Assembly (NCBI GenBank): GCA_963805975.1
Contig: CAWDVR010000005.1
Span: 480,001-544,000, forward strand
DNA length: 64,000 nt
Origin: an uncultured Acidobacteriota bacterium
GTDB taxonomy: Bacteria > Acidobacteriota > Thermoanaerobaculia > Multivoradales > SZUA-115
Direction of reading: 5' to 3'
Below are positions 50,753-64,000 of this stretch, piece by piece. A program made the position numbers and the translations under genes. The notes under the pieces are model-generated. The model saw nothing but the letters and a program-made list of their open reading frames with translations, did not search any database and was not told the DNA's origin. How positions within the stretch are numbered: position 1 is the first letter of the stretch; the number at the start of each line of letters is the position of its first letter.

Positions 50753-50989
50753 ATGGACTGCCGGAAGGTCTCCGAGATCGCGTTCCTCTACGTCGACAAC
50801 GAGATGGGGTCGGATCTACAGCAGCCTTTTCACGACCACCTCTCTCGGTGTCCCTGCTGTGCCAGCCGGGTGGATCAGAGTCGCAGGCTGGTGATCCTGG
50901 TCCGCCAACGCTGCGTACGGCAGCCGGCTCCGCAGCACCTGCGGGTCCGCATCCTGACCAGCCTGCCGCATCGGCAGGGATGGAGCTGA
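50753..50989 (+). CDS. Zinc-binding anti-sigma factor (ZAS, RsrA/RshA-like)
   Basis: MDC...YVD.E...HLSRCPCC (HxxxCxxC) and AP..LR.RI; soluble. Confidence 0.88.
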   Translation: MDCRKVSEIAFLYVDNEMGSDLQQPFHDHLSRCPCCASRVDQSRRLVILVRQRCVRQPAPQHLRVRILTSLPHRQGWS

Positions 50990-50997
50990 CAACGGCT

Positions 50998-51459
50998 ATG
51001 CGAAACGCTTCGCGGTTTTTGATCACGGCCCTGGTCTCGGCCGTTCTCGGGTGTGCCCAGCCGGGGGCTGCCCAGGTGCCGGATCTGCCGGGGCTGTCCG
51101 GTTCCGGTGTGAGGTCTGCCGACCTGGCCAAAGGCAACGCTCTGCTCGTGGTCTGGACCTCGTGGTCGCCGCGATGCCGCGACGTGGTCGAGCGGGTCAA
51201 CGCGCTCGACCAGCAGTGGCAGGGCAAGGCCCGCGTCTACGCCGTCAATTTCAACGAGGACCGGACGGAGGCGGAGCGCTTTCTCCAAGGCAAGACCTTC
51301 AATGTTCCGGTGCTGCTCGATGCAGACGGCTCCTTCTCGAAGAAAAACGCCATCACGGTACTGCCGGGCCTGGTGGTGATCCAGGATGGGAAGATCACCT
51401 ACGCCGGCAAGCTGCCGGACGCCGCCGACGGCCTCCTTTCGGGGCTGCTCGACCGCTAG
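50998..51459 (+). CDS. TlpA/ResA-like thioredoxin-fold protein with SxxC; probable lipoprotein
   Basis: VLGC lipobox-like signal, VWTSWSPRC, AVNFNED, PVLLD.DG, cis-Pro VLP. Confidence 0.8.
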   Translation: MRNASRFLITALVSAVLGCAQPGAAQVPDLPGLSGSGVRSADLAKGNALLVVWTSWSPRCRDVVERVNALDQQWQGKARVYAVNFNEDRTEAERFLQGKTFNVPVLLDADGSFSKKNAITVLPGLVVIQDGKITYAGKLPDAADGLLSGLLDR

Positions 51460-51597: not shown

Positions 51598-52962
51598 ATG
51601 CGAGCGCCGAGCCCAGCCCCCCTGCGGAAGCTCGCACTTCGGTGGAAGCACTGGCTTCCGATCGTTCTGATTCCTGCCCTCGGCGTAACCCTCTTCCAAC
51701 TTCAGAGCGCGGACTGGTTCCGTGGTGCTTCGCAGATGGCGGTCTCGACCGCTGCCGTACTGCCGGCGCTGCCCGTGGCTCCACCAACGCCCCCGGCTTC
51801 GCCCCCGATCCAGCGCACGGTGCGCTCCGGCGAGACCCTGAGCCAGGTCTTCGAAGATCTGGGCCTGAGCTCGCAGGAGGCTCGTTCGGCGGTGGACGCG
51901 ATACGCCCCCACGTCGACCCACGCCGCGTCCGCACCGGCGACGCCTACGTTGCCGCGTACGATCCGAGCCGGAAGCTGGTGTCGTTCGAGATGGGTGTTA
52001 CCGGCCGCGGGCGGGTCAAGCTCGCGCGCTCGGCCGCGGACGCCTGGCGATCGATCTTCACGCCCGTGGTCCGCGAGGTCCGTCCCCGCGTCGTCACCGC
52101 TGAGCTCAGCGAGTCGCTCGAGGCTGCGATCCGCGGTGCGCAGGCGGATCCGGTGCTCGCCTACAAGATGGCCGACGTGCTGCAGTGGGACCTCGATTTC
52201 ACCCGCGATCTGCGCGTCGGCGACAAGTTCCAGATCCTCTACGAAGAGGTTCTCCTCGACGGTAAGTTCGCCTCGGTGGGCGAGGTCGTGGCCTTGCGCT
52301 ACGAGAACCGTGGCCGGGTGCTGGCGGCCTTCCGCCATGGCGAGGGCTACTACGACGCCGACGGCCGGCCGCTCAAGAAGATGTTCCTGCGGGCTCCGCT
52401 GCGCTTCACCCGCGTCACCTCCGGCTTCTCTCATCGCCGCTTTCATCCGGTTCTCCATACGTTCCGGCCGCACTACGGCGTCGACTACGGAGCGCCCAAG
52501 GGCACCCCGGTGATGGTCACCGCCAACGGCACCGTGAGCTTTGCCGGTTGGGACCGTGGCGGCGGCAAGACCGTCAAGGTGCGGCATCCGGGGGGCTACA
52601 CCACCTGCTATCTCCATCTCTCCGGCTTCGCCGAGGGCATCCGGCCCGGTCGGACCGTGCGCCAGAGCGACGTGGTCGGCTTCGTCGGGTCCACGGGCCT
52701 GGCGACGGCCCCGCACCTCGACTACCGGGTCAACCTGAACGGAAAGTGGCTCAACCCGCTCTCTCTGGATGCGGTGCCGGCACGACCCATCAGTGGCACC
52801 GAGCTGGCGAGCTTCCGGGCCCGCCGGGACGCGCTGCTGGCGAGCCTCGCGGCTGGAAAGCCGCTCGCGATGCCGCTCGACCCGGAGACCAAGCTGGCCC
52901 GCTCCTCGCCCGGCCTGCCGGCCTCCGCCGTCGCCCCGGACATGGCCTCGGCGCGCCGATAA
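51598..52962 (+). CDS. M23 peptidoglycan DD-endopeptidase (MepM-like)
   Basis: HYGVDY (HxxxD), YLHLS, GSTGLATAPHLDY, with an N-terminal TM. Confidence 0.92.
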   Translation: MRAPSPAPLRKLALRWKHWLPIVLIPALGVTLFQLQSADWFRGASQMAVSTAAVLPALPVAPPTPPASPPIQRTVRSGETLSQVFEDLGLSSQEARSAVDAIRPHVDPRRVRTGDAYVAAYDPSRKLVSFEMGVTGRGRVKLARSAADAWRSIFTPVVREVRPRVVTAELSESLEAAIRGAQADPVLAYKMADVLQWDLDFTRDLRVGDKFQILYEEVLLDGKFASVGEVVALRYENRGRVLAAFRHGEGYYDADGRPLKKMFLRAPLRFTRVTSGFSHRRFHPVLHTFRPHYGVDYGAPKGTPVMVTANGTVSFAGWDRGGGKTVKVRHPGGYTTCYLHLSGFAEGIRPGRTVRQSDVVGFVGSTGLATAPHLDYRVNLNGKWLNPLSLDAVPARPISGTELASFRARRDALLASLAAGKPLAMPLDPETKLARSSPGLPASAVAPDMASARR

Positions 52963-53013
52963 GTCGGAAAAAAGGCGGGGAACGCCTATCAAGACCGCAA
53001 AGCAGGTTTCGTC

Positions 53014-53391
53014 TTAGAAGCGGTTGTCGTCACGGCCGGCGACCAGCGGCCGGAGCTTGCCCGTCTTGACGGTGATGAGCGATTCCACCTCGCGGCGGGT
53101 GGGCTCGTCCAAGGCCTGGAAGTCTCGAATCAAGCCCATGTCGCGCTCGCTCATCGACTCCTTCGCCATGTCGTCGAAGAACTCCCCGATCGTGATCTGG
53201 AACTCCGAGAGGATGCGGAAGAGGGTGTCCAGGCTGACTCGATACTCTCCTTTTTCCATCCGGGAGAGGTCGGACTGCTGGATGCCGATGCGTGAAGAGA
53301 GCTCGGTCTGAGTCAGGTTGTGCTCCTTGCGGAGCTGGCGGATCTTCCGCCCGACGAGCTTCACCGGCCGGATCTTGTAGACGGTAGCCAT
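53014..53391 (-). CDS. XRE-family HTH transcriptional regulator
   Basis: GRKIRQLRKEHNLTQTELS.RIGIQQSDLSRMEKGE. Confidence 0.9.
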   Translation of the reverse strand: MATVYKIRPVKLVGRKIRQLRKEHNLTQTELSSRIGIQQSDLSRMEKGEYRVSLDTLFRILSEFQITIGEFFDDMAKESMSERDMGLIRDFQALDEPTRREVESLITVKTGKLRPLVAGRDDNRF

Positions 53392-53558
53392 CTTGACACG
53401 TTCTCCAGAGCCCCTAGACGCTATCGAAATGTCGATTTGGCATGGCAGAGCTGAGATAGCTGACACTAGCGAGGTGCTCCGGCGAAGTCAAGATGGGGTG
53501 ACGACATAGGTTGTGGGGGTCATCCGGAAGGCTTGCTGATAATCTGGCGCCGCCTCCC

Positions 53559-54329
53559 ATGCGGCAAAACCTCTTCCTGCTGAAAGAGCTCGTCCAGCGC
53601 GACTTCAAGGGCCGCTACGCCGGCTCCCTGTTCGGCCTTTTCTGGTCCTTCGCCCAGCCGCTCTGGCTTCTGGTGCTCTTCAGCTTCGTGTTCGCCACGG
53701 TGATGAAGATCTCGCTGGCGGGGGAGAGAACGGGGAGCTTCGCGGTGTTCGTGTTCTGCGGCCTCCTGCCATGGACGGCCCTCAACGAGGGCCTCAACCG
53801 GTCGGCGACGGCGGTGACCGACAGCTCCAACCTGGTGAAAAAGCTGCGGTTTCGGTCCCAGATCCTAGTCTTGACCGTGGTTCTGACGGCGCTGCTCCAC
53901 CAAGCGATCGCTATGTCCCTGTTCATGGTCTTCCTGGTCGCGACCGGTGAGCTTGAGTGGCGCGGGCTGCCGTTGCTCGCCCTGGCGATCCCCCTCCAGG
54001 CGGCGCTCACCGTGGGGCTGGGCCTGTTGCTCGCCGCCGTTCACGTGTTCTTCCGCGACACCGCGCAGATTCTGGCGCTCGCGCTCTCCGGCTGGTTCTA
54101 TTTCACGCCGATCGTCTATCCACTGAGCCTGGTTCCCGAGACCATCCGTCCCTGGGTCGAGCTCAACCCGCTGACGGCCCTGGTCGGCCTCTACCGGCAG
54201 GGGCTCCTCGGCGGCACCTTGACGCTGCCCTCGGGCACCGGAGCACTCGCCGTCCTTGCCGTCGTGGCGCTCCTCGGGGGAAGCTGGCTTTTTGGCCGGC
54301 TGGAGCCGCTTTTCGTCGACGAGGTTTGA
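53559..54329 (+). CDS. wzm: Polysaccharide ABC exporter permease
   Basis: RDFKGRYAGS.FG..WS..QP, GLLPW, VFFRD, FYFTPIVYP, LNPL. Confidence 0.92.
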   Translation: MRQNLFLLKELVQRDFKGRYAGSLFGLFWSFAQPLWLLVLFSFVFATVMKISLAGERTGSFAVFVFCGLLPWTALNEGLNRSATAVTDSSNLVKKLRFRSQILVLTVVLTALLHQAIAMSLFMVFLVATGELEWRGLPLLALAIPLQAALTVGLGLLLAAVHVFFRDTAQILALALSGWFYFTPIVYPLSLVPETIRPWVELNPLTALVGLYRQGLLGGTLTLPSGTGALAVLAVVALLGGSWLFGRLEPLFVDEV

Positions 54330-54344
54330 ATTCGTTCGCTGCCG

Positions 54345-54360
54345 TGGCGCAGAGCTTGCT
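54345..54360 (+). promoter_or_regulatory. Sigma-54 -24/-12 promoter upstream of the FG-GAP lipoprotein
   Basis: TGGCGC-AGAGC-TTGCT in the intergenic gap, with GG-N10-GC spacing. Confidence 0.6.
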
Positions 54361-54449
54361 TCCTGTTAGATTCTCGTCTGTAAAGGGCGTGCCTTGGTAC
54401 CGAGCACGCTTCTACCATCCGGTCTCATTCTTGAAGGGCTCGATTCTCT

Positions 54450-56294
54450 ATGCTGATTCAGCGGTTCAGGACTCCTTCGGCCATCTGTTGCCTCGCCGCT
54501 TTCCTCACGGGAACGGCCCTTTTGACCGGCTGCACCGCCAACTCTGCCGCCAACTCGGCCTCTGTGGCGCCGGCCAGCGAAGCAGCTCCGCCGGCAGCGG
54601 CTCCGGGAGCGCCGCCGGTGGCCGAGAAGCCGGCTCCTCCGCCCCCGGCGACCTCGAGCCCGCCCGCGCTGGCAACCTCGACTCCGGTGCGCACTCCGGA
54701 GCAGGCGCTCTCGGCGGTCTCGGGTGCCCAGGTCGATGTGCCTCCTCCCCCGCGGGCGGGCATCGAGCCGCCGGACGGCGTCTGGCTGAGCGACGAGACC
54801 GGCACCGAGTTCTATATCGAGAAGATGAAGCGCTACGAGGGCAAGTACAAGTGGATCACCGATCACCAGATCAACTATCTCGGCGTCAAGGTGGACATCG
54901 TCGACGCCGATGACGACTGGTTCTACGTCAAGGTCTATCGCGTTCGGGACTACGAGCGCAGCATCAAGCGCGTGGACCCGACGCCCGAGCAGCTCGCCGA
55001 GGTCGCGGCCACTTTCTCGGGCGATACCGGTCAATCCGATCGCTTGGAGTTCCGCGCTTTCGACCGTGGGTTGCCGGCCAACGGCCTGTGGCGCAACGGC
55101 TTCGTGATCGCCGACATGAATGGCGATGGCCACCCCGACATCGTGCACAGCCCGCCCCGCAAAGGCGGTGGCCTGCCGATCGTCTTCCTGGGCGACGGCA
55201 AGGGGGGCTGGCAGGTGTGGCGGGAGCTGCGCTATCCGCGGGAGTACGACTACGGCGACGTGGCCGTGGGCGACTTCAATGGCGACCGCCACCAGGACTT
55301 GGCGCTCGCCATCCACCTGCGCGGCATGCGGGTGCTGGTGGGCGACGGCAAGGGCCGTTTCACCGAGTGGTCGGACGGGCTCGACTACCAGGTGCCCGGC
55401 GAAGGTGGCGATTCCTCGGGCTTCTCCTCGCGCGCCGTTCGCGTCGTCGATTGGAATGGCGACGGTCGCCCCGACGTGCTGGCCCTCGCCGAGGGACCCC
55501 GCATCGGCAACCCCTCGGCCGAGCAGAGGCGGCGCGAGGGTCTGGGAGCGGTCGCCTTCGTGGCCGAGGGGCCGATGGTGTTCCTGAACCAGGGCAATGG
55601 GAAGTGGGTGAAGCAGGCCGAACCGGCGAACCTGCAGGGGATCTTCGGCGACGACCTCGAGGTTGGAGACTTCAACGCCGACGGCCGGGTCGACTTCGCG
55701 ACCTCCTCGAGCCGCATGTCGCGGAAGGATCTGGTCAACCTCGGCGGACCTGGCGTCGAATGGAAGGCGGAGATGATCGGGTCTGTGCGGTCCAACGCCT
55801 ACGTGCGCGGCATTTCGGTGGCAGACGTAGACCACGACGGCAAGGACGACCTCTTCGTCTCCTTCGTCTGCTACGAGCTGGGAATCTGGAGAAGCGGGAT
55901 CGACCTGCTCTACTCGCGGCCAGACGGCGCCTGGGAGCGGAAGTCGCTCTTCGCGCGCGAGGACCGCACGGCCTTCTACGGCATGGCCGCCGGTGACCTC
56001 GACGCCGATGGCGCCGTCGATGTCGTGGCGGTCGACAACGACGGCGGCATGCTCGTGCTGCTGGGCGATGGCAAGGGCGGCTTTGCCGTCGAGGAGTCGC
56101 CCGAGCTCAACAAGCTGCGCGGCATGTGCCGCGGCTACCGGGTTGAGCTGGCCGACCTCGACGGCGACGGCCGCGACGAGGTGATCGCCAACTACGCGGA
56201 CGAGCCCTCGGCGCTCTTCGACCCGCAGCGCTGCCTGAATGGCGGCGGTGTGGTGGCCGTCACCTCGGTTGCCAGGGCCGGTGCCGGCCGCTGA
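54450..56294 (+). CDS. FG-GAP/VCBS-repeat beta-propeller lipoprotein
   Basis: Lipobox LLTGC, Pro/Ala linker, and about seven D.N/D.DG..D Ca-binding repeats. Confidence 0.85.
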   Translation: MLIQRFRTPSAICCLAAFLTGTALLTGCTANSAANSASVAPASEAAPPAAAPGAPPVAEKPAPPPPATSSPPALATSTPVRTPEQALSAVSGAQVDVPPPPRAGIEPPDGVWLSDETGTEFYIEKMKRYEGKYKWITDHQINYLGVKVDIVDADDDWFYVKVYRVRDYERSIKRVDPTPEQLAEVAATFSGDTGQSDRLEFRAFDRGLPANGLWRNGFVIADMNGDGHPDIVHSPPRKGGGLPIVFLGDGKGGWQVWRELRYPREYDYGDVAVGDFNGDRHQDLALAIHLRGMRVLVGDGKGRFTEWSDGLDYQVPGEGGDSSGFSSRAVRVVDWNGDGRPDVLALAEGPRIGNPSAEQRRREGLGAVAFVAEGPMVFLNQGNGKWVKQAEPANLQGIFGDDLEVGDFNADGRVDFATSSSRMSRKDLVNLGGPGVEWKAEMIGSVRSNAYVRGISVADVDHDGKDDLFVSFVCYELGIWRSGIDLLYSRPDGAWERKSLFAREDRTAFYGMAAGDLDADGAVDVVAVDNDGGMLVLLGDGKGGFAVEESPELNKLRGMCRGYRVELADLDGDGRDEVIANYADEPSALFDPQRCLNGGGVVAVTSVARAGAGR

Positions 56295-56322
56295 GCCGGC
56301 CAAAAAACCTCCACCAAGCGGC

Positions 56323-56350
56323 TTGACACCTCGAACAGCCGTCCTATAGT
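56323..56350 (+). promoter_or_regulatory. Near-consensus sigma-70 promoter
   Basis: TTGACA (56323-28), 16-bp spacer, TATAGT (56345-50), with an upstream A-tract. Confidence 0.85.
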
Positions 56351-56355
56351 GTAAG

Positions 56356-56638
56356 AGCATAAGACGGCCTGACCGCCCGTGAATGCTCGGGAGACAGCTC
56401 CCGGGAGCTCGAGGGTGTAGCGGCCATCGGGTCGCACTCGAGATCGGCTGCGGCCCGATCGACACGCAGCAGCTTCGAACAACGTAAGACCGCTTTGAAT
56501 CTTTTGCTTGGAGGTGATGTTTCTCAGCCGGAAGGAACCACGGAAGGTACTGACAGCTAGTTGGATGTGTTGGGTGGGAAATCCGCTTTGGTTTCCCCGT
56601 GGGAAACAACGTAGTCACCTTTGAGGAGATTGTCTGTC
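56356..56638 (+). promoter_or_regulatory. Long structured 5' leader
   Basis: About 280 nt between promoter and ATG, with several hairpins and a long-range pairing just before the GAGGAG SD. Confidence 0.6.
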
Positions 56639-57961
56639 ATGAAGAAAACTGCGGTTTGCATCGCGCTCGTGGGCCTGCTGGCCCTGGGCGGTCAGGCGAT
56701 CGCGGAGATTGGGACGATCGACGATGTGCCGGCGGCGACTTTGCTGCTGCCGTACTTCGCGGTCGATCTCAACGATCCGCTGGCCTTGACGACCCTGTTC
56801 TCGATCAACAATGCCTCGGCGGCCCCGGCGATCGCCCACGTCACTCTGTGGACGGACCTGTCGGTACCGACGCTCGACTTCAACGTCTACCTGACCGGGT
56901 ATGACGTGGTCACGTTCAACCTGCGCGACCTGTTCACCACGGGTACGGTGCCGGCGACGGAGCACATCAACGACGGCGATGCGATCTCGCCGGTGGGTGT
57001 GTTCTCGTTGGTGACCAACCCGATCACGGGCGTGGGCCCGGGCTCGACGTCGTGCAACGGCCAGTTGCCGTTGCCGCCGCTGCCGGGCGTGCTGCTCGAC
57101 CACATTCGTGCGGCGCACACCGGTTTGGCTTCGCCGGTGGTGTTCGGTGGTCTGTGCTCGGGTGTGGAGTATGGCGACAACATTGCTCGCGGTTACATCA
57201 CGATCGACAGCGTGAACTTCTGCACGCTGGACTTCCCCGGCGACACCGGTTACTTCATTGCCGGTGGCAACGGTGCGGCGAACAACCTGAACCAGCTCTG
57301 GGGCGACTACTTCTACGTCAATTCGGGTGAGAACTTCGCGCAGGGCGAGACGCTGGTGCATCTCGAGGCGTCGGCGGCACTGGGTGCGGCGAACTACACG
57401 TACTACCGTCGGTACAGCGGCGGCGCTGACCAGCGCGAGGGCATGGGCTCGACGTTCGCGGTGCGTTACAACGATGGTGGTGCGTTCTCGGGTGGTACGA
57501 GCCTGGTGGTGTGGCGCGATGCGAAGCGGACGATCTTCCCGTTCTCGTGCGCTCTGACGGCTCCGGCTCCGTATCCGTTGGGTCAGACGCAGATCGTGAT
57601 CTTCGACGAAGACGAGAACCCGGACGTTCCGGAGTCCTCGCCGTTCTCGCCGGTGATCCCGGGTACGTCTCTGCTGCCGTTCCCGTGGGAGACGCAGTCG
57701 ACGCAGGTCAACGGTCCGGACTTCCCGGTGCCGTTCAACTTCGGTTGGCTGTACCTGAACCTGAACGCCGCAGTGGCGGGCAGCCAGGTGCCGTTCGAGC
57801 CGATCATGCAGAACTGGGTGACGGCGCTGATGGATGCCGACGGTCGGTTCAGCGTGGGCTTCGATGCGATCCAGCTCGACAACGTGACCGACCCGGCCAC
57901 GGCGACGAACATCCTGCTCCCGGTCTGCGACGGCGCACCGGATCCGGCTGGCTGCTTCTAG
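56639..57961 (+). CDS. Abundant secreted surface protein, putative S-layer subunit
   Basis: Signal peptide (AIA-E), acidic and almost Lys-free mature part, many GGT/CGT/GAT codons, strong promoter, long leader and its own terminator. Confidence 0.6.
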   Translation: MKKTAVCIALVGLLALGGQAIAEIGTIDDVPAATLLLPYFAVDLNDPLALTTLFSINNASAAPAIAHVTLWTDLSVPTLDFNVYLTGYDVVTFNLRDLFTTGTVPATEHINDGDAISPVGVFSLVTNPITGVGPGSTSCNGQLPLPPLPGVLLDHIRAAHTGLASPVVFGGLCSGVEYGDNIARGYITIDSVNFCTLDFPGDTGYFIAGGNGAANNLNQLWGDYFYVNSGENFAQGETLVHLEASAALGAANYTYYRRYSGGADQREGMGSTFAVRYNDGGAFSGGTSLVVWRDAKRTIFPFSCALTAPAPYPLGQTQIVIFDEDENPDVPESSPFSPVIPGTSLLPFPWETQSTQVNGPDFPVPFNFGWLYLNLNAAVAGSQVPFEPIMQNWVTALMDADGRFSVGFDAIQLDNVTDPATATNILLPVCDGAPDPAGCF

Positions 57962-57988
57962 TGGTTCGCGAGTAGCGTTTGCTCGACT

Positions 57989-58024
57989 CCAGGTGGGCCT
58001 GGCCTCCAGGCCCACCTGGTTTCT
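57989..58024 (+). terminator. Rho-independent terminator
   Basis: Perfect 14-bp stem CCAGGTGGGCCTGG/CCAGGCCCACCTGG with 3-nt loop, then TTTCT. Confidence 0.8.
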
Positions 58025-58170
58025 CCGGCAGCCTCTGCAACGTGCTCCTCGTCACCGCGGGGCAGATTGGAGCGGCCAGCCACCGGCCAGCGAGCACACT
58101 CGCTCCGGCGGGAACTCTTCAACCCGGCGATCCGATCAGAGCCGGCTTTTCCAAGGACGGTAAACAATTG

Positions 58171-61100
58171 ATGGAGCTACGCTCGATGACCCGGAAGACC
58201 GCCCTGCAAGTTCCATGCTGCGTGAGCCTATGCCTACTCCTCGCGGTCGCCGTGTCTGCGCCGGTCGAGGCTCAGGGAAGCTGCCAGTTCTCCCTCGCCG
58301 CAGCCCCCGCATCGGGTGTGCCGGCGGCGCTCTGGGGCGACCTGAAGCCCGTGGACGCCGGCCAGCTGCCGTCGGACCGCGACAACACCGGGATGAGCGA
58401 CCTGATCTCGCCAAGCGAGACGCGGCCGCGCTGGATGTCGATCGACATCGAGAACAGCTACGGTTTCGTGGCCATCACCCACGGCTTGCAGATCTGGGAT
58501 CTCTCGAGCCCGGCTGCGCCCGCCTTCCGCGGCGTCGCCGGACCTGGCTCCTTTCTCTCCTGGCGCACGGACCCGCACGAGGGCAACCCGGCGCGTGACG
58601 TCGACTCTCCGCCAGGCAACGACGACGTGACCGCGGTCGCCGTGGTCGGCGGTGGTGGGCTCAACGTGTTCGACACCAGCGTCAAGAACAGCCCGGTGGC
58701 GCGCTACGCCGACGGCGGCAAGACGGCGAACCAGGTCTACGCCGGGCGCGTCGGCGGCAAGGACTATGCCTTCGTCGCCAGCACCGACGCAGGGCTCCTG
58801 GCCTACGACCTCGAAGTCGCCGGCAACCTGACGACGGCCTGTATCGACAACTCTCCCAGCTCGGTCACCTGCGGCGTTTACCGTGGTCGGATCGGCTCCC
58901 GCGGAGGGTTGCTGTACGTGGACGGCGTGTCCAACGCGGCGCAGACGCAGCTCTGGGTCGCCTCCGCCGGCGGCCGCACCAGCACGGGGATGGAGCTGTG
59001 GAACGTCTCCAATCCCACCAACCCTCAGCTCGTTTTCGCGCCGACCTTCCCGGAGTCGCCGTCCTACCCGGACTTCGTCCACGGTGTCGCCCTCTGGCGT
59101 AACGGGTCGAGCTACTACCTGGCGCTGCGGGTCGAGGTGGGCAACAACACCACCTCGGCGCGCATCTACGACGTGAGCTGCATCGCCACCAGCTCCTGCA
59201 CCGGCCTGCCGGCCCCGATCTGGTCGCGCAACCTGCCCAACGAGTCGGCGGAGTTCTACATTACCGCTTCCGAGGGCGCCGGCCGACGCTTCCTGTACTT
59301 CGGCAACAACAACCGCTGCGCGAGCGGGCTGCAGAACGAGTGGCTCTACGACGTCAGCAGCCCCTCCTCGCCGACCGACGTCACACCCGGCCCGGGTCTG
59401 GTGGGCGGCGAGCAGACGGGCTACTGGGGCTGGTACTACCGCGCCAACCCCACCGGTTTCAACGAGATCGACCCGCGGATCGGGAAGTTCAACGGCCAGC
59501 ACTTCTATCGCACTGCCTACAGCATCTTCGACATCCACGTGTTGAACAGCGGAGGCCCGCCCACGGCGGCCTTCAGCCACACGCCGGCCCTGGTCTACGA
59601 AGGCCAGCAGATCGACTTTGCGGACAGCTCGCTCGGCAACCCGGCCTCTTGGAGCTGGACCTTCCAGGACGCGACGCCTCCGACCTCGACCAGCCAGAAC
59701 CCGCAGAACGTCGTGTTCAACTCACCGGGCGCCAAGTCGGTCTCGCTCCAGGTGACGAATGGCTTCGGCACCGACACCGAGGTGCAGAGCATCAACGTGC
59801 TCGACCCGGCACCGGTGGTGGCGAGCGTTACCGTCTCGCCCAACCCCGCGTTCGTCTGCCAGCCCATCACCTTCACGGCCACCGGCGTCACCGGTTTCCC
59901 CCTGCCGACCCTCTCCTGGGACGTCCAGGGCACCAGCGGCTCGGTCGCGACGGGCGGCAACGTCAACCCGTTCGTCTGGTCCACCACGGGTGCCACTCTT
60001 CCCGGTACCTACACGGGTACCGTGACCGCCGCCAGCGGCGCCGGCTCCGACGCGGCCATCAGCCCGACGCTGGTGCTCAGCGCGCTCCCGACCCTACCCT
60101 TGGCCGGTGCCTTCACGCCTATCACCGACCTCTTTACCGGCGGGACGGTGCAGTTCCATGTCAACGCCCTGGGCGCCACGGCGTGGTGCTGGAACTTCGG
60201 CGACGGCACCTCGTTCCCCACCGGCTGCCTGCCCTCGAACCCCGGTAGCTTCAGCACCGATCCGGTGGCGGGTCCGAACCCGTCGCACACCTACCAGTCG
60301 GTCAACACCTACGTGGTGAGCGTCAGCATCCGCAACTGCGTCGAGGGGGTGCGGACCAGCGCGCCGCTCTCCGTCAGCGTGACCCAGGTCACGCCGCTGA
60401 TCGCGGACTTCGCGGCCCAGGGCGTCTTCTGCACCGGCTCCGGCTGCTTCGCCAACACCAACACGCCGATCACCTTCACCAATCTGACGACCGGCCTGCC
60501 GGACTTCTACGATTACGATTGGGCGGGTGACGGGACCTACGAGGACGCCAACCACACGACGCCCGTGACCATCCACACCTATAGCGCGACGGGCACCGTG
60601 AAGCCCACGCTGCGGGTACGGCGTGGTACCGAGCAGGACGTCTTCGAACACCGTCAGATCGTGCTCTCGACCGGAAGTGGCGGCGGCCTGCCGAGCGCCG
60701 CGATCAGCGGTCCCTTGTCCGGACAGGTGGGAGCTGCGCTCTCGTACAGCGTCTCGGCCAGCAACTGCTCGCCCGCGCCCTCCACCTGGACCTGGGACGT
60801 CGGCGGCGGCACCATCAGCGGCTCGACCACCGGCAACCAGATCTCGGTGAGCTTCTCGACGTCGGGCACGAAGGTCATTCGCGCCACGGCCGGCGCCGGC
60901 GGCTGCACCGGTACGTCCGACACCCACTCGGTCTCCATCACCACCCCGACCGGCGGCGGGACATTGGCTGCCAACTTCAGCTTCACCCCGATCAACCCGA
61001 CCCCTGGCCAGCAGGTTTCCTTCGATGGCACCACCTCGACCGGAAGCCCGACCGGCTTCACCTGGCACTTTGGCGACAACACCTCCGGTACCGGCGTGAA

Positions 61101-62916
61101 CGTCACCCACACCTACGCGCAGAGCGGCACCTACCAGGTGCAACTGGAAGTGAGCAAGCCGGGCAACACCTGCCCGTTCGGTACCTGCTCCGCCTCGGTC
61201 ACCAAGACGGTGACGGTGGGCGGCCCGACCGTTGCCGCGAGCTTCACCAGCAACGCCACCTGCGGCGCCTTCGAATGCACGGCCGAAACCGGCCAAGCGG
61301 TGAGCTTCACCTCCACCTCGCAGAACGCGACGGTGCTGGATTGGACCTTCGGTGACCAGACCTCGGCCACCGGCGCCACCGCCAGCCACACCTGGAACGT
61401 CGCCGGCAACTACCAAGTCGTGCTGACGGCGCGCGACGGCCAGGGCGGCAGCGCTCAGGCCACCAAGCTCTTCCGCGTCGAGGAGCCGCCGACGCAGGAC
61501 GAGGTCGTGATCCTGCCCTGGATCGCCGACACCACCGGTGCGCTCGAGCAACTGAGCGACCTGTACGTGACGAACCCCGGCACGGAGCCGATGAACATCG
61601 AGATCAGCTTCCGTGTCCGCGGCACACCCGAGGCGACGCCCCCCAGCGCAACCCGCACCGTGGGGCCGAAGGCCACGTTCTACGCCCCGGACGTGCTCAA
61701 CGATCTGTTCGATCGCAACGACACCGGCGGCTTCCTGGTGGTGAAGGCGCTGGACGTCGCCGTGGAGCCGGTGGTGGTCTCTCTCAATCGGACCTTCCAG
61801 CCCGGGGGCAAGACCTACGGACAGCTCGTGCCCGGCATCGGCGACCGCGAGCTGGCGGACATCGGCCGGGACAGCGGTGGCACGCAGTACCTGCTCGGGC
61901 TGTTCGATACCAATGAGCGCCTGACGCAGATCGGCCTCACCAACCCGCACCCCGAGACGGCCACGTATCGCCTGCGCTTCGTCGACCATCTCGGCAACAT
62001 CATCGCCAGCACGCCCCAGGCGCTGGCGGTCGCACCCTGGGGGCAGAAGCAGTTCCAGGTGCAGGAGCTTCGCGACCGCTTCGGTCTCGTGGGTCGCGAC
62101 GACTACCGGGTGGAGGTCGTCCAGGTCTCGGGTCAGACCCTCTTCGCCTACGCGGGCGTGATCCGCACCGGCACCGAGGATCCCTCCTTCGTGCAGGTCA
62201 GCCTGCCGAACCGGGCGCACACCTACCTGGTGGGCGCCACCTCCACGCCGGGCTTCAACAACGCGCTCTTCGTCACCGACGTGGTGCTCTCGAACCCGAC
62301 GACCCAGGTGATGCAGGTCGAGATGAAGTTCCGGGGACTCGGCGTCGACAGCCCCGAGCTGGGACCGGTCGACATCACCCTGTTGCCGAACGAGACGCAG
62401 CGCATCGAGGACGTGATCTTCGACCGCTTCAACCTGCACGACACGGTCGGCTTCCTCACCTTCGACAGTGAAGGCGCCGGCGGGCTCTTCCCGCTGATCC
62501 ACGGCGAGGTCTACCAGGACAGCGGCCCGCAGGCGCGCTACGGCCTGTTCATGCCCTCGCGCCGTGACGCCGAGATTGCCGGGGTCGGCCAGCAGCTCGT
62601 GCTCTCGGGCCTGCGTCAGCTCGCGGAAGACTCGAACACCAGCCTGCTCCTCTTCAACCCGGCCGAGGAGTCCGCGCTCTGCGACCTCGTCTACTACGGC
62701 CTGGGCGGCCAGGAGCTGGGACGGATCACCAACTACACGGTCTCGCCGGGAGGCATGCGGCAGATCAACCCGTCACGCCATCCGCTGCCTGCCGGCGGCG
62801 TGACCGGCGGCTTCTCGGTGGTGGTGGAGGTCAAGGCCGGTAGTTTGATGGGTGGAGCGCAGGTGGTCATCAACCGGACGAACGACCCGGCCTACATCTC
62901 GGCCGCCGTTCGTTGA
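58171..62916 (+). CDS. Giant secreted PKD-domain surface protein (N-terminal propeller-like region, PKD/Ig repeats, repeated C-terminal beta units)
   Basis: Signal peptide (VEA-Q); LQIWDLSSP/LWNVSNP/LYDVSSP propeller-like blades; WTFQD, WNFGDG, WHFGD, WTFGD PKD motifs. Alternative start 58186. Confidence 0.85.
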   Translation: MELRSMTRKTALQVPCCVSLCLLLAVAVSAPVEAQGSCQFSLAAAPASGVPAALWGDLKPVDAGQLPSDRDNTGMSDLISPSETRPRWMSIDIENSYGFVAITHGLQIWDLSSPAAPAFRGVAGPGSFLSWRTDPHEGNPARDVDSPPGNDDVTAVAVVGGGGLNVFDTSVKNSPVARYADGGKTANQVYAGRVGGKDYAFVASTDAGLLAYDLEVAGNLTTACIDNSPSSVTCGVYRGRIGSRGGLLYVDGVSNAAQTQLWVASAGGRTSTGMELWNVSNPTNPQLVFAPTFPESPSYPDFVHGVALWRNGSSYYLALRVEVGNNTTSARIYDVSCIATSSCTGLPAPIWSRNLPNESAEFYITASEGAGRRFLYFGNNNRCASGLQNEWLYDVSSPSSPTDVTPGPGLVGGEQTGYWGWYYRANPTGFNEIDPRIGKFNGQHFYRTAYSIFDIHVLNSGGPPTAAFSHTPALVYEGQQIDFADSSLGNPASWSWTFQDATPPTSTSQNPQNVVFNSPGAKSVSLQVTNGFGTDTEVQSINVLDPAPVVASVTVSPNPAFVCQPITFTATGVTGFPLPTLSWDVQGTSGSVATGGNVNPFVWSTTGATLPGTYTGTVTAASGAGSDAAISPTLVLSALPTLPLAGAFTPITDLFTGGTVQFHVNALGATAWCWNFGDGTSFPTGCLPSNPGSFSTDPVAGPNPSHTYQSVNTYVVSVSIRNCVEGVRTSAPLSVSVTQVTPLIADFAAQGVFCTGSGCFANTNTPITFTNLTTGLPDFYDYDWAGDGTYEDANHTTPVTIHTYSATGTVKPTLRVRRGTEQDVFEHRQIVLSTGSGGGLPSAAISGPLSGQVGAALSYSVSASNCSPAPSTWTWDVGGGTISGSTTGNQISVSFSTSGTKVIRATAGAGGCTGTSDTHSVSITTPTGGGTLAANFSFTPINPTPGQQVSFDGTTSTGSPTGFTWHFGDNTSGTGVNVTHTYAQSGTYQVQLEVSKPGNTCPFGTCSASVTKTVTVGGPTVAASFTSNATCGAFECTAETGQAVSFTSTSQNATVLDWTFGDQTSATGATASHTWNVAGNYQVVLTARDGQGGSAQATKLFRVEEPPTQDEVVILPWIADTTGALEQLSDLYVTNPGTEPMNIEISFRVRGTPEATPPSATRTVGPKATFYAPDVLNDLFDRNDTGGFLVVKALDVAVEPVVVSLNRTFQPGGKTYGQLVPGIGDRELADIGRDSGGTQYLLGLFDTNERLTQIGLTNPHPETATYRLRFVDHLGNIIASTPQALAVAPWGQKQFQVQELRDRFGLVGRDDYRVEVVQVSGQTLFAYAGVIRTGTEDPSFVQVSLPNRAHTYLVGATSTPGFNNALFVTDVVLSNPTTQVMQVEMKFRGLGVDSPELGPVDITLLPNETQRIEDVIFDRFNLHDTVGFLTFDSEGAGGLFPLIHGEVYQDSGPQARYGLFMPSRRDAEIAGVGQQLVLSGLRQLAEDSNTSLLLFNPAEESALCDLVYYGLGGQELGRITNYTVSPGGMRQINPSRHPLPAGGVTGGFSVVVEVKAGSLMGGAQVVINRTNDPAYISAAVR

Positions 62917-62926
62917 CACGCCCCCG

Positions 62927-64000
62927 ATGAGGGAGCCGGTCGTCGAAGCCAGAGGTTTGTCGAAGGTCTATCGCGTCTACACGAGCCCCTTCGACCGCCT
63001 GCGCGAGTGGCTTTCCGGCCGGCCCCGCCACCGGGCGCTGCACGCCCTGTCCGCGGTGAGCTTCGAGGTGCCGGCGGGCGAGGGCCTCGGCATCGTCGGC
63101 GAGAACGGCGCCGGCAAGTCCACCCTGCTCAAGATTCTCGCCGGCATCGTGCGCCCCACCGCCGGCGAGCTGCGGGTGCGCGGGAAAGTCGCTTCGATCC
63201 TGGAGCTCGGCTCCGGCTTCCATCCCGAGCTCACCGGCCGTCAGAACGTCTCGCTCAACGCGGCGATGCTCGGTTTGACGGCGGCGGAGACGCGAGAGCG
63301 CCTGCCGGAGATCGTCGCCTGGAGCGAGCTGGGCGATTTCATCGACCAGCCGGTCAAGACCTACTCCACGGGCATGGCCATGCGGCTGGGCTTCTCGATC
63401 GCGACCCAGGTCGACCCGGAGGTCTTGATCATCGACGAGGCGCTGTCGGTGGGCGACGGCTACTTCCAGAAGAAGTGCATGGACCGCCTGCAGGTGCTGA
63501 TCAGCCAGGACAAGACCATCCTCTTCTGCTCGCACGCCATGTACTACGTGACCGCCTTCTGCCGCCGCGCCTTGTGGCTGCGGGGCGGCGAGCCCGCGGC
63601 CCTGGGACCGGCGGACGAGGTGGTGAGGAAGTACGAGAACTTCCTCCAGGCCAAGACGGCGCGCGCGGAGGAGGTCGGTTCGGCTGCCGGGGAGGAGCCC
63701 GCGGACCACCTGCCGAGGCGTGGCGCCGAAAGCGGCAGGCGTCTGCCGGCCCGCATCGTGTCCGTGGATCTGCCGGCCGGAAAGCACTATCGCCACGACG
63801 GCTTCTGGCGGCTCGAGGTCGAATGGCAGAGCGAGGACCCGGATCTCGGTTTTCATCTGGGGGTGGGCGTCAACCGCATCGACGAGGTCGAGGTGCTGGC
63901 CTTCGGTACCCATCTCGACGGCCTGCCGCCCCATCGCGGTCAGCGCCGGTACCGCGCCGGGCTCGAGGTGCCGCGCATGCCCCTCCTCAAGGGCTCCTTC
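62927..64000 (+). CDS. wzt: Polysaccharide ABC exporter ATPase (3' truncated by window; absent from ORF track)
   Basis: Read from ATG 62927: MREPVVEARGLSKVY...GENGAGKSTLLK...LELGSGFHPELTGR.N...KTYSTGM..RL.FS...IIDEAL.VGD..FQ.KC, then a Wzt-C-like extension. Confidence 0.93.
   Translation, partial: MREPVVEARGLSKVYRVYTSPFDRLREWLSGRPRHRALHALSAVSFEVPAGEGLGIVGENGAGKSTLLKILAGIVRPTAGELRVRGKVASILELGSGFHPELTGRQNVSLNAAMLGLTAAETRERLPEIVAWSELGDFIDQPVKTYSTGMAMRLGFSIATQVDPEVLIIDEALSVGDGYFQKKCMDRLQVLISQDKTILFCSHAMYYVTAFCRRALWLRGGEPAALGPADEVVRKYENFLQAKTARAEEVGSAAGEEPADHLPRRGAESGRRLPARIVSVDLPAGKHYRHDGFWRLEVEWQSEDPDLGFHLGVGVNRIDEVEVLAFGTHLDGLPPHRGQRRYRAGLEVPRMPLLKGSF

Follow-up and report, generated by a model that had tools for sequence, protein, structure and literature searches.

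A wzm–wzt locus of Thermoanaerobaculia (Acidobacteriota) encodes a candidate S-layer protein with two ASRAH-like domains

Results

A class-wide envelope locus with a candidate S-layer protein

We analysed a gene cluster at the end of a 64,000-nucleotide stretch of DNA (the window; contig CAWDVR010000005.1, G000:C5:480001-544000) from the 5.36-Mb, 96% complete genome of an uncultured Acidobacteriota bacterium (GCA_963805975.1). In this locus wzm and wzt, which would encode the two halves of a glycan pump, are separated by three genes encoding an FG-GAP repeat protein, a secreted 440-aa protein and a long PKD-repeat protein. The locus is an inherited, class-wide cell-envelope locus of the Thermoanaerobaculia. 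The 440-aa protein is, as DNA proxies support well, an abundant structural envelope protein, and we rate slightly above even the chance that it forms a surface layer (S-layer) held by an exported O-antigen-like glycan. The order and positions of the genes given in the preliminary description of this DNA (XRE regulator, wzm, FG-GAP, 440-aa, PKD, wzt) were all borne out (Table 1).

Synteny was analysed in 40 relatives, 35 of which had an orthologous wzm; 22 carried wzm and wzt orthologues on one contig, and 20 of these 22 were inspected as single loci. The FG-GAP, 440-aa and PKD genes lay between wzm and wzt in 18 of the 22. The preliminary description had proposed a synteny check and had taken adjacent wzm and wzt, with the surface genes elsewhere, as evidence against the locus; the order was conserved in these 18 genomes and in loci from other orders, and the adjacent arrangement was mostly absent. 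In G015, wzm and wzt are adjacent and the surface genes lie directly upstream. Among eight loci from other orders of the class, six retain the XRE, wzm, FG-GAP and 440-aa genes, four of these with wzt behind, and two are paralogue arrays. The 440-aa family was present in 120 of 151 genomes of the class (21 of the 31 misses belong to genus g12) and in 18 of 201 genomes of the phylum, four of these outside the class; one unpublished genome (G062) contributes one count to each tally. Named homologues of the 440-aa protein carry the label Thermoanaerobaculia. A recent insertion of the surface genes was rejected on the basis of the class-wide synteny, and a plasmid search gave no match.

In three loci of family f2 (L013, L015 and L018), additional propeller-PKD genes sit between wzm and the FG-GAP gene, on the opposite strand. 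In G014, whose genus lacks the 440-aa family, the region upstream of wzm (L100:11194-15026) encodes a pair of secreted paralogues, each about 440 aa long, which contain cysteines and have a C-terminal motif in common; this pair is possibly a replacement surface protein.

Expression signals of the 440-aa gene

Codon bias was scored against 35 reference genes, mostly ribosomal, and the 2,610 genes of at least 600 nt were ranked. The 440-aa gene and its twin on contig C1 took ranks 1 and 2, above EF-Tu, while the other five paralogues ranked from 68 to 1,137 and the neighbouring genes from 408 to 2,128. Scored with the tables of the source genome, the 440-aa gene also had the highest codon bias of the five locus genes in all 13 relatives analysed. 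The strong sigma-70 promoter and long leader reported earlier for this gene were found again: the site is the sole promoter-like match in 52000-64000 (0.6 expected in shuffles), and its TTGACA and TATAGT boxes are exact in 29 of 38 loci.

The leader harbours a Shine-Dalgarno (SD)-like element, GGAGGTGAT, which is a perfect complement of the 16S rRNA end of the source genome and follows a U-rich run. It was exact in 35 of 40 loci, and in 38 of 40 when one variant was allowed, 96-177 nt upstream of the start; in two loci the change preserves a G-U pair. The 9-mer occurs 109 times in the genome, counting both strands, which corresponds to a chance of about 0.4% per leader. A leader peptide behind the element was rejected, as neither stop positions nor peptides were conserved in 38 loci. 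With no conserved upstream open reading frame (ORF) and no start codon at working distance, the element resembles a STAB-SD. RNase J (TIGR00649, E 0.001) was not found in the source genome (96% complete), so any effect of the leader element must work otherwise than in cry3A.

The terminator placed behind the 440-aa gene in the preliminary description was partly substantiated: the stem is strong, while its T tail is weak and the terminator scanner did not call it. The hairpin is likely a leaky terminator or a 3' stabiliser. Hairpins of -20 kcal/mol or stronger follow the 440-aa gene in 14 of 17 loci, a count of little weight, given that it lacked a shuffle control and failed to detect the hairpin of the window itself.

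The second copy, on C1 (G000:C1:950947-952269), shares 98% DNA identity over the mature region; its signal peptide differs, its promoter-like site is its own and weaker, its leader element is a G-U variant, and it has a hairpin with a T tail. Over nucleotides 76-300, the copies within a genome matched at 223 and 224 of 225 positions, compared with 204 and 202 of 225 between orthologues. The relation was reversed in the first 75 nucleotides (73 and 67 matches between orthologues vs. 47 and 48 between copies within a genome). The second genome in this comparison was G001, whose contigs break beyond nucleotide 300. The two near-identical copies are thus homogenised by gene conversion.

Codon bias, promoter and leader element together point to very high expression, in line with the role of major protein given to the 440-aa protein in the preliminary description, and it is likely the most abundant exported protein of the cell.

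Fold and predicted dimer of the 440-aa protein

A Sec-type signal peptide, a pI of 4.05 and seven cysteines characterise the 440-aa protein, which matches no Pfam or NCBIfam family. Its own family comprises seven copies in the source genome and 2,270 clusters at 50% identity. In the predicted structure (pLDDT 92.8) two beta-sandwich domains carry long insertions beyond the core fold, and these insertions could make lattice contacts. Exhaustive fold alignment of the model against 48,161 chains placed 1NC7 (TM1070) and 2II7 (ASRT) in the top two positions. Domain 2 aligned to 1NC7 with Z 9.3 (rmsd 2.7, 104 aligned residues) and domain 1 to 2II7 with Z 5.6 (rmsd 3.5, 101 aligned residues; next row Z 4.4). 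Foldseek against PDB gave no clear match for this model or for that of the PKD tail described below, and 1NC7 and 2II7 came from the exhaustive aligner only. The lists of fold matches contained no known S-layer structure, which does not exclude one. N58, invariant in 111 sequences of the family, corresponds to the near-invariant ASRAH asparagine at the end of strand 2; a counterpart in domain 2 was not identified. At the position of the ASRAH tryptophan at the start of strand 1, the family has tyrosine or phenylalanine.

Oligomer models, which the preliminary description had suggested as a check, predicted that the protein pairs with itself (score 0.49; best of three controls 0.00), with at least 85% contact agreement between runs and pLDDT of at least 86. 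Among solved pairs 20 of 30 attained the mark for this score, and among single chains 1 of 23. In the predicted dimer the copies lie head to tail, with domain 1 of each contacting domain 2 of the other, forming a four-domain ring in ABAB order. The dimer is closed. Invariant residues were enriched at the predicted interface (13 of 58 vs. 28 of 361 elsewhere, p 0.0015).

The PKD protein tail and its natural exchange

The last 472 residues of the PKD protein form four domains, in which repeat 1 resembles repeat 3 and repeat 2 resembles repeat 4 (hhalign, 98%). The ASRAH arrangement in dyads and tetrads is thus found at this locus as two domains in the 440-aa protein and four in the PKD tail. The tail model (pLDDT 93.3) had the same two chains, 1NC7 (Z 13.7, rmsd 3.5, 113 aligned residues) and 2II7 (Z 10.3), as its top two among the 48,161. 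DUF5719 was matched by 17 of 28 tail members, including the window's tail, which passes the cut-off. Asparagines N26, N149, N254 and N387, equivalent to the ASRAH strand-2 asparagine, are invariant in 14 tails, and 12 of 14 first tail repeats have tryptophan at the start of strand 1. The N-terminal LVIVD-like propeller is a lead only (best Atlas match 0.89 vs. the 0.9 mark).

The inspected loci contained 19 PKD orthologues: 13 end in the tetrad, two (L017 and L021) end in two 440-aa modules and four in neither. In L017 and L021 the propeller-PKD part is followed by the two modules in tandem, in one reading frame. P0139, 43% identical to the L021 protein, is a third case of this exchange; P0154 shares the domain offsets of L017 and was counted together with it. 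As three orthologues swap the tetrad for two 440-aa modules, the PKD tail likely acts as a single-chain mimic of the dimer predicted for the 440-aa protein. A tail equal to one dimer suits a lattice plug or a glycan clamp alike, and the data do not separate these.

The 440-aa module also occurs as tandem doubles (about 800-900 aa, many cases) and, in the 12 long matches scanned for passenger domains, fused to DUF11, Calx-beta, nuclease, Ig, cadherin-like, P-domain and PKD passengers. Tandem arrays of at least five family modules, some of them single-chain doubles, were seen in L104 (G078:C71), L093 and L028, the last with broken copies. In the source genome, a 1,134-aa secreted protein (G000:C2:478406-481810; weak M12 peptidase match, FN3, PKD) has tail repeats akin to the PKD tetrad, and its gene is convergent with a Wzy_C-family gene.

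The FG-GAP protein, the exporter and glycan genes

The sigma-54 site reported before the FG-GAP gene is present, and it recurs in 9 of 9 aligned loci and in 24 of 35 in a wider count, while none of six loci from other orders has it. The same gene product had been described as a calcium-binding lipoprotein anchor or assembly factor. The lipobox holds for the window's protein; inspected by eye, about 13 of 27 orthologues have one, about 12 have an ordinary signal peptide and 2 are ambiguous, and calcium binding stays conjectural. The FG-GAP protein is likely an assembly or export helper.

Together, wzm and wzt fit a pair of ABC2 permease and TagH/Wzt-type ABC ATPase. The top NCBIfam matches of wzm were Wzm/RfbD and KpsM, and those of wzt were TagH and Wzt/RfbE, all under their cut-offs; the Wzt_C match at the C-terminal end of wzt was weak (E 0.007, 16.8 bits vs. 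a cut-off of 30.4). The source genome has two other wzm/wzt pairs. An adjacent wzm-wzt pair at G000:C4:110555-119820, the second in this genome, lies about 4.4 kb from tandem paralogues of the 440-aa family, which may be chance.

Past the window, wzt is followed by genes for a radical SAM/SPASM protein and a GT2 glycosyltransferase, two unrelated genes, a GT4 and a 2OG-Fe(II) oxygenase; further downstream are a polyprenyl-phosphate-type GT2, a sulfatase, a PIG-L/GT2 fusion and another GT2. The glycosyltransferases expected behind wzt are thus there; no ligase or O-oligosaccharyltransferase of the kind sought with them was found in the locus. The locus contig has no Wzy_C ligase/oligosaccharyltransferase gene, with seven matches at six loci elsewhere in the genome; Pfam Wzy_C does not separate ligases from O-oligosaccharyltransferases. 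STT3 (PF02516) was not found in the source genome. Consequently, of the two roles offered earlier for the glycan, tethering fits the surface proteins better than decorating them. The C-terminal end of the PIG-L deacetylase-GT2 fusion (L001:12100-14028) may resemble the proteins that terminate chains of ABC-pathway glycans. The genome contains LpxC, a KdtA-like gene and a GspD/E/F-like cluster, all unlinked to the locus, and both secretin genes lie outside it, about 70 and 200 kb away.

Other features of the locus

The features are collected in Table 1. The XRE gene adjoins wzm or lies within 3.1 kb of it in 15 of 20 loci. It has a conserved promoter-like site on the minus strand (53465-53492), just downstream of which lies the palindrome, a putative XRE operator; autoregulation is likely, judging from this placement. 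The palindrome has five strict copies in the genome, the other four on C1 and C2. An XRE operator over the promoter of the 440-aa gene was unsupported (strict half-site in 5 of 34). The PKD gene encodes 1,582 aa from its TTG start, and an alternative ATG start 3 or 18 nt later is possible; 10 nt separate its stop from the wzt ATG. An Rfam scan of 52900-64000 gave no matches. Upstream of the locus are genes for an M23 peptidase with a Csd3-type domain (51598-52962), which recurs there in many relatives, and a TlpA-like redoxin (50983-51459). A redoxin-like gene also precedes the C1 copy of the 440-aa gene, with possible relevance to disulfide formation.

Table 1. Position and characteristics of the features of the wzm–wzt locus (window coordinates).
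Feature	Position	Strand	Remarks
XRE-family HTH regulator, divergent from wzm	53014-53391	-	Pfam HTH_3 E 3e-14
15-bp palindrome ATGYC-N5-GRCAT	53429-53443	none	relaxed pattern in 24/34 XRE-wzm intergenic regions
wzm, ABC-2 permease	53559-54329	+	Pfam ABC2_membrane E 2e-15
Sigma-54-type -24/-12 site	54345-54359	+	upstream of FG-GAP gene
FG-GAP repeat protein, six DxDxDG motifs, lipobox Cys28	54450-56294	+	Pfam FG-GAP_3 E 9e-33
Sigma-70-type promoter TTGACA-16-TATAGT	56323-56350	+	11/12 consensus matches
Leader SD-like element, 9-nt perfect complement of 16S rRNA 3' end	56510-56518	+	129 nt before start
440-aa secreted acidic protein, candidate S-layer protein	56639-57961	+	two ASRAH-like beta-sandwich domains, ~residues 30-245 and 268-420
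14-bp hairpin, weak T tail	57989-58019	+	-31.2 kcal/mol
PKD protein (gene 58168-62916), N-terminal part: signal peptide, LVIVD-like propeller (candidate), PKD repeats	58168-61497	+	Pfam PKD_4 E 3e-48, five stretches
PKD protein, tail: four ASRAH/DUF5719-like domains, ABAB order	61498-62916	+	DUF5719 28.9 bits vs cut-off 26.2
wzt, ABC ATPase, 419 aa	62927-64186 (window ends 64000)	+	Pfam ABC_tran E 3e-22

Discussion

The data are consistent with the following model of an S-layer tethered by glycan. The split pump would export an O-antigen-like glycan. The 440-aa protein would be exported by Sec and then pass, folded, through the unlinked type II-like secretion system. Its copies are predicted to associate head to tail as dimers, forming four-domain ASRAH rings, which, given the gene linkage and the sugar binding proposed for ASRAH proteins, might bind the exported glycan, and the dimers would pack into a lattice. 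The PKD protein is likely part of the same layer by way of its four-domain tail, holding the propeller outward on the PKD stalk, and the FG-GAP protein, from its own sigma-54-type promoter, likely assists assembly. The hairpin likely ends most transcripts after the 440-aa gene, while a minority would read into the PKD gene and wzt, as we infer from the 10-nt gap between these two. More tentatively, and with rather less than even confidence, this could be extended to a class-wide S-layer of ASRT/TM1070 fold, in which the four-domain ring would be both lattice tile and glycan clamp, hundreds of adhesins and enzymes would plug in through single-chain copies of the tile, the leader would park ribosomes without RNase J, and gene conversion would keep the protein uniform.

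Several observations weigh against an S-layer of this kind. The abundance of the 440-aa protein is deduced from DNA proxies (codon rank, promoter and leader element), and the codon ranking used a set of 3,313 genes from a crude caller. In G034 the order is wzm-FG-GAP-wzt and the 440-aa family genes are about 40 kb away, and in G014 and G024 megabases separate wzm from wzt and no member of the family was found; as one genus thus has wzm and wzt without the family, and G034 has its family genes at a distance, the pump does not need the 440-aa neighbour. The relatives compared are kin, not independent, so that the counts show inheritance and not repeated origin. The fold match of domain 1 is middling (Z 5.6), and profile searches of PDB sequences with the 440-aa family gave nothing significant. 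Profile-profile comparison between the family and the PKD tail was also not significant, either over the full length or domain by domain (probability below 2%), so the link between the two rests on the fold and the natural tail swap; the tail was undetected in 4 of 19 PKD orthologues. With a lipobox in only about half of its orthologues, a lipid anchor is not the conserved role of the FG-GAP protein. The GspD/E/F-like secretion genes are unlinked and score under the NCBIfam cut-offs. As the solved structure of TM1070, which has the same fold, is a tetramer, this likeness may have contributed to the dimer score. The two-copy model is a closed dimer, so the lattice stays an inference. The earlier label "S-layer-like" is likewise a reading and not an observation.

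The closed dimer also suits an abundant, non-crystalline coat, in which dimers would bind the exported glycan singly and the same module would tether passengers to it. We regard this as unlikely, although several findings are in its favour: the sugar-binding cleft proposed for ASRAH proteins lies partly at the dimer interface, and these domains occur as dyads or tetrads (PMC2739507, available part of the text); the module is found fused to the various passengers described above; and the source genome has seven paralogues. However, a tether would need neither top codon bias, nor a dedicated strong promoter, nor gene conversion between copies, and the 440-aa protein carries no passenger while its large insertions could make lattice contacts.

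The glycan could also reach the surface proteins covalently if the pump exported a lipid-linked glycan that is attached to them, as in S-layer O-glycosylation, and not to lipid A. The six Wzy_C-family loci elsewhere (which Pfam cannot assign to ligases or to O-oligosaccharyltransferases), the polyprenyl-phosphate glycosyltransferase-like GT2 downstream and the two other wzm/wzt pairs, which could serve lipopolysaccharide (LPS), would suit this. We nevertheless consider it improbable, given that the locus contig has no Wzy_C gene, that STT3 was not found and that lipid A genes are in the genome; moreover, the sole diderm precedent with this layout, Aeromonas, exports O-antigen (PMC4483657, in the text available). 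Least probable, in our opinion, is an abundant periplasmic scaffold binding peptidoglycan or a periplasmic glycan, with the wzm/wzt linkage reflecting shared envelope regulation, although fusion to peptidoglycan amidases is described for one secreted ASRAH family (PMC2739507, same part). Only a Sec-type signal peptide is visible, the locus has no secretion genes, and the M23 peptidase gene is a frequent upstream neighbour, all of which fits a periplasmic location. Against it, the passengers of the module are domains typical of extracellular adhesins or enzymes, and a PKD stalk of about 1,580 residues bearing a propeller would suit the surface better than the periplasm.

The S-layer reading gains its interest from the state of knowledge in the phylum. 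A survey of 2024 calls S-layers in Acidobacteriota ambiguous in its available part, and its supplementary Table S2 may list an acidobacterial case (bioRxiv 10.1101/2024.05.28.596244). Among open-licence papers on S-layers of Thermoanaerobaculia or Acidobacteria and on ASRAH/DUF5719, the listings and openings of abstracts contained no account of the locus. With a candidate for the protein, another for the anchoring glycan and a predicted unit of assembly, the locus provides a concrete S-layer candidate for the phylum. If this holds true, it would be the first structural role for the ASRAH fold and would explain the four-domain ASRAH ends of large secreted proteins of the class; the more tentative, extended reading would amount to a modular surface-display system in a diderm phylum with no established S-layer.

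Parts of the locus resemble known systems. In the cry3A STAB-SD of Bacillus thuringiensis, an SD about 129 nt upstream of the start directs no initiation and blocks RNase J1 (PMC4113751, available excerpt). Here, too, a strong SD with no start stands in the leader of a putatively massively produced protein; unlike in that system, RNase J was not found in the source genome. The slg loci of Geobacillus and Paenibacillus serve S-layer O-glycosylation and have an O-oligosaccharyltransferase gene in the cluster. In contrast, this contig has no such (Wzy_C) gene. The S-layer proteins RsaA of Caulobacter and that of Campylobacter fetus use type I secretion and have different folds, whereas the 440-aa protein has a Sec-type signal peptide. 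What would be shared is the anchoring mode, as these diderm S-layers are held non-covalently by O-antigen (PMC12175726 and PMC8559796, from the text accessible).

With the ASRAH superfamily (2II7, 1NC7 and DUF5719-type proteins), the locus shares the beta-sandwich fold, the asparagine after strand 2, the dyads and tetrads and the glycosyltransferase neighbours; unlike its members, the 440-aa protein contains long insertions, and it is not significantly linked to them by sequence. The accessible part of the ASRAH paper describes tetramers, dyads or tetrads, with a proposed sugar-binding cleft to which the dimer interface contributes, and members that are small intracellular sensors, a secreted family fused to peptidoglycan amidase, and actinobacterial lipoproteins, none of them a bulk structural protein (PMC2739507).

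The closest layout is that of the A-layer (wb_salmo) locus of Aeromonas salmonicida, in which the T2SS (type II secretion system) genes and vapA lie between wzm and wzt; the O-antigen is lost when wzt is deleted, and the A-layer when vapA is deleted (PMC4483657). A. hydrophila AH-1 has a similar arrangement, in which a truncated wzm lies upstream and an intact wzm-wzt downstream (PMC4413209), and the A-layer is described as tethered by LPS in the available text of both papers. As this layout of wzm, S-layer gene and wzt has been published, the earlier term "undescribed" applies to the proteins of the locus and not to its arrangement. Both loci have surface genes between wzm and wzt and a major protein of similar size (49 kDa in Aeromonas). 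However, the insert there consists of a dedicated T2SS and vapA and, going by that text, is found in some Aeromonas only, while here FG-GAP, ASRAH-fold and PKD proteins, with no secretion genes among them, make up a class-wide set; the 440-aa protein is set apart from VapA by locus content and description, not by direct homology comparison. The Aeromonas layout recurs here with a different set of proteins, which suggests that the coupling of an S-layer to the exporter of its anchoring glycan arose more than once.

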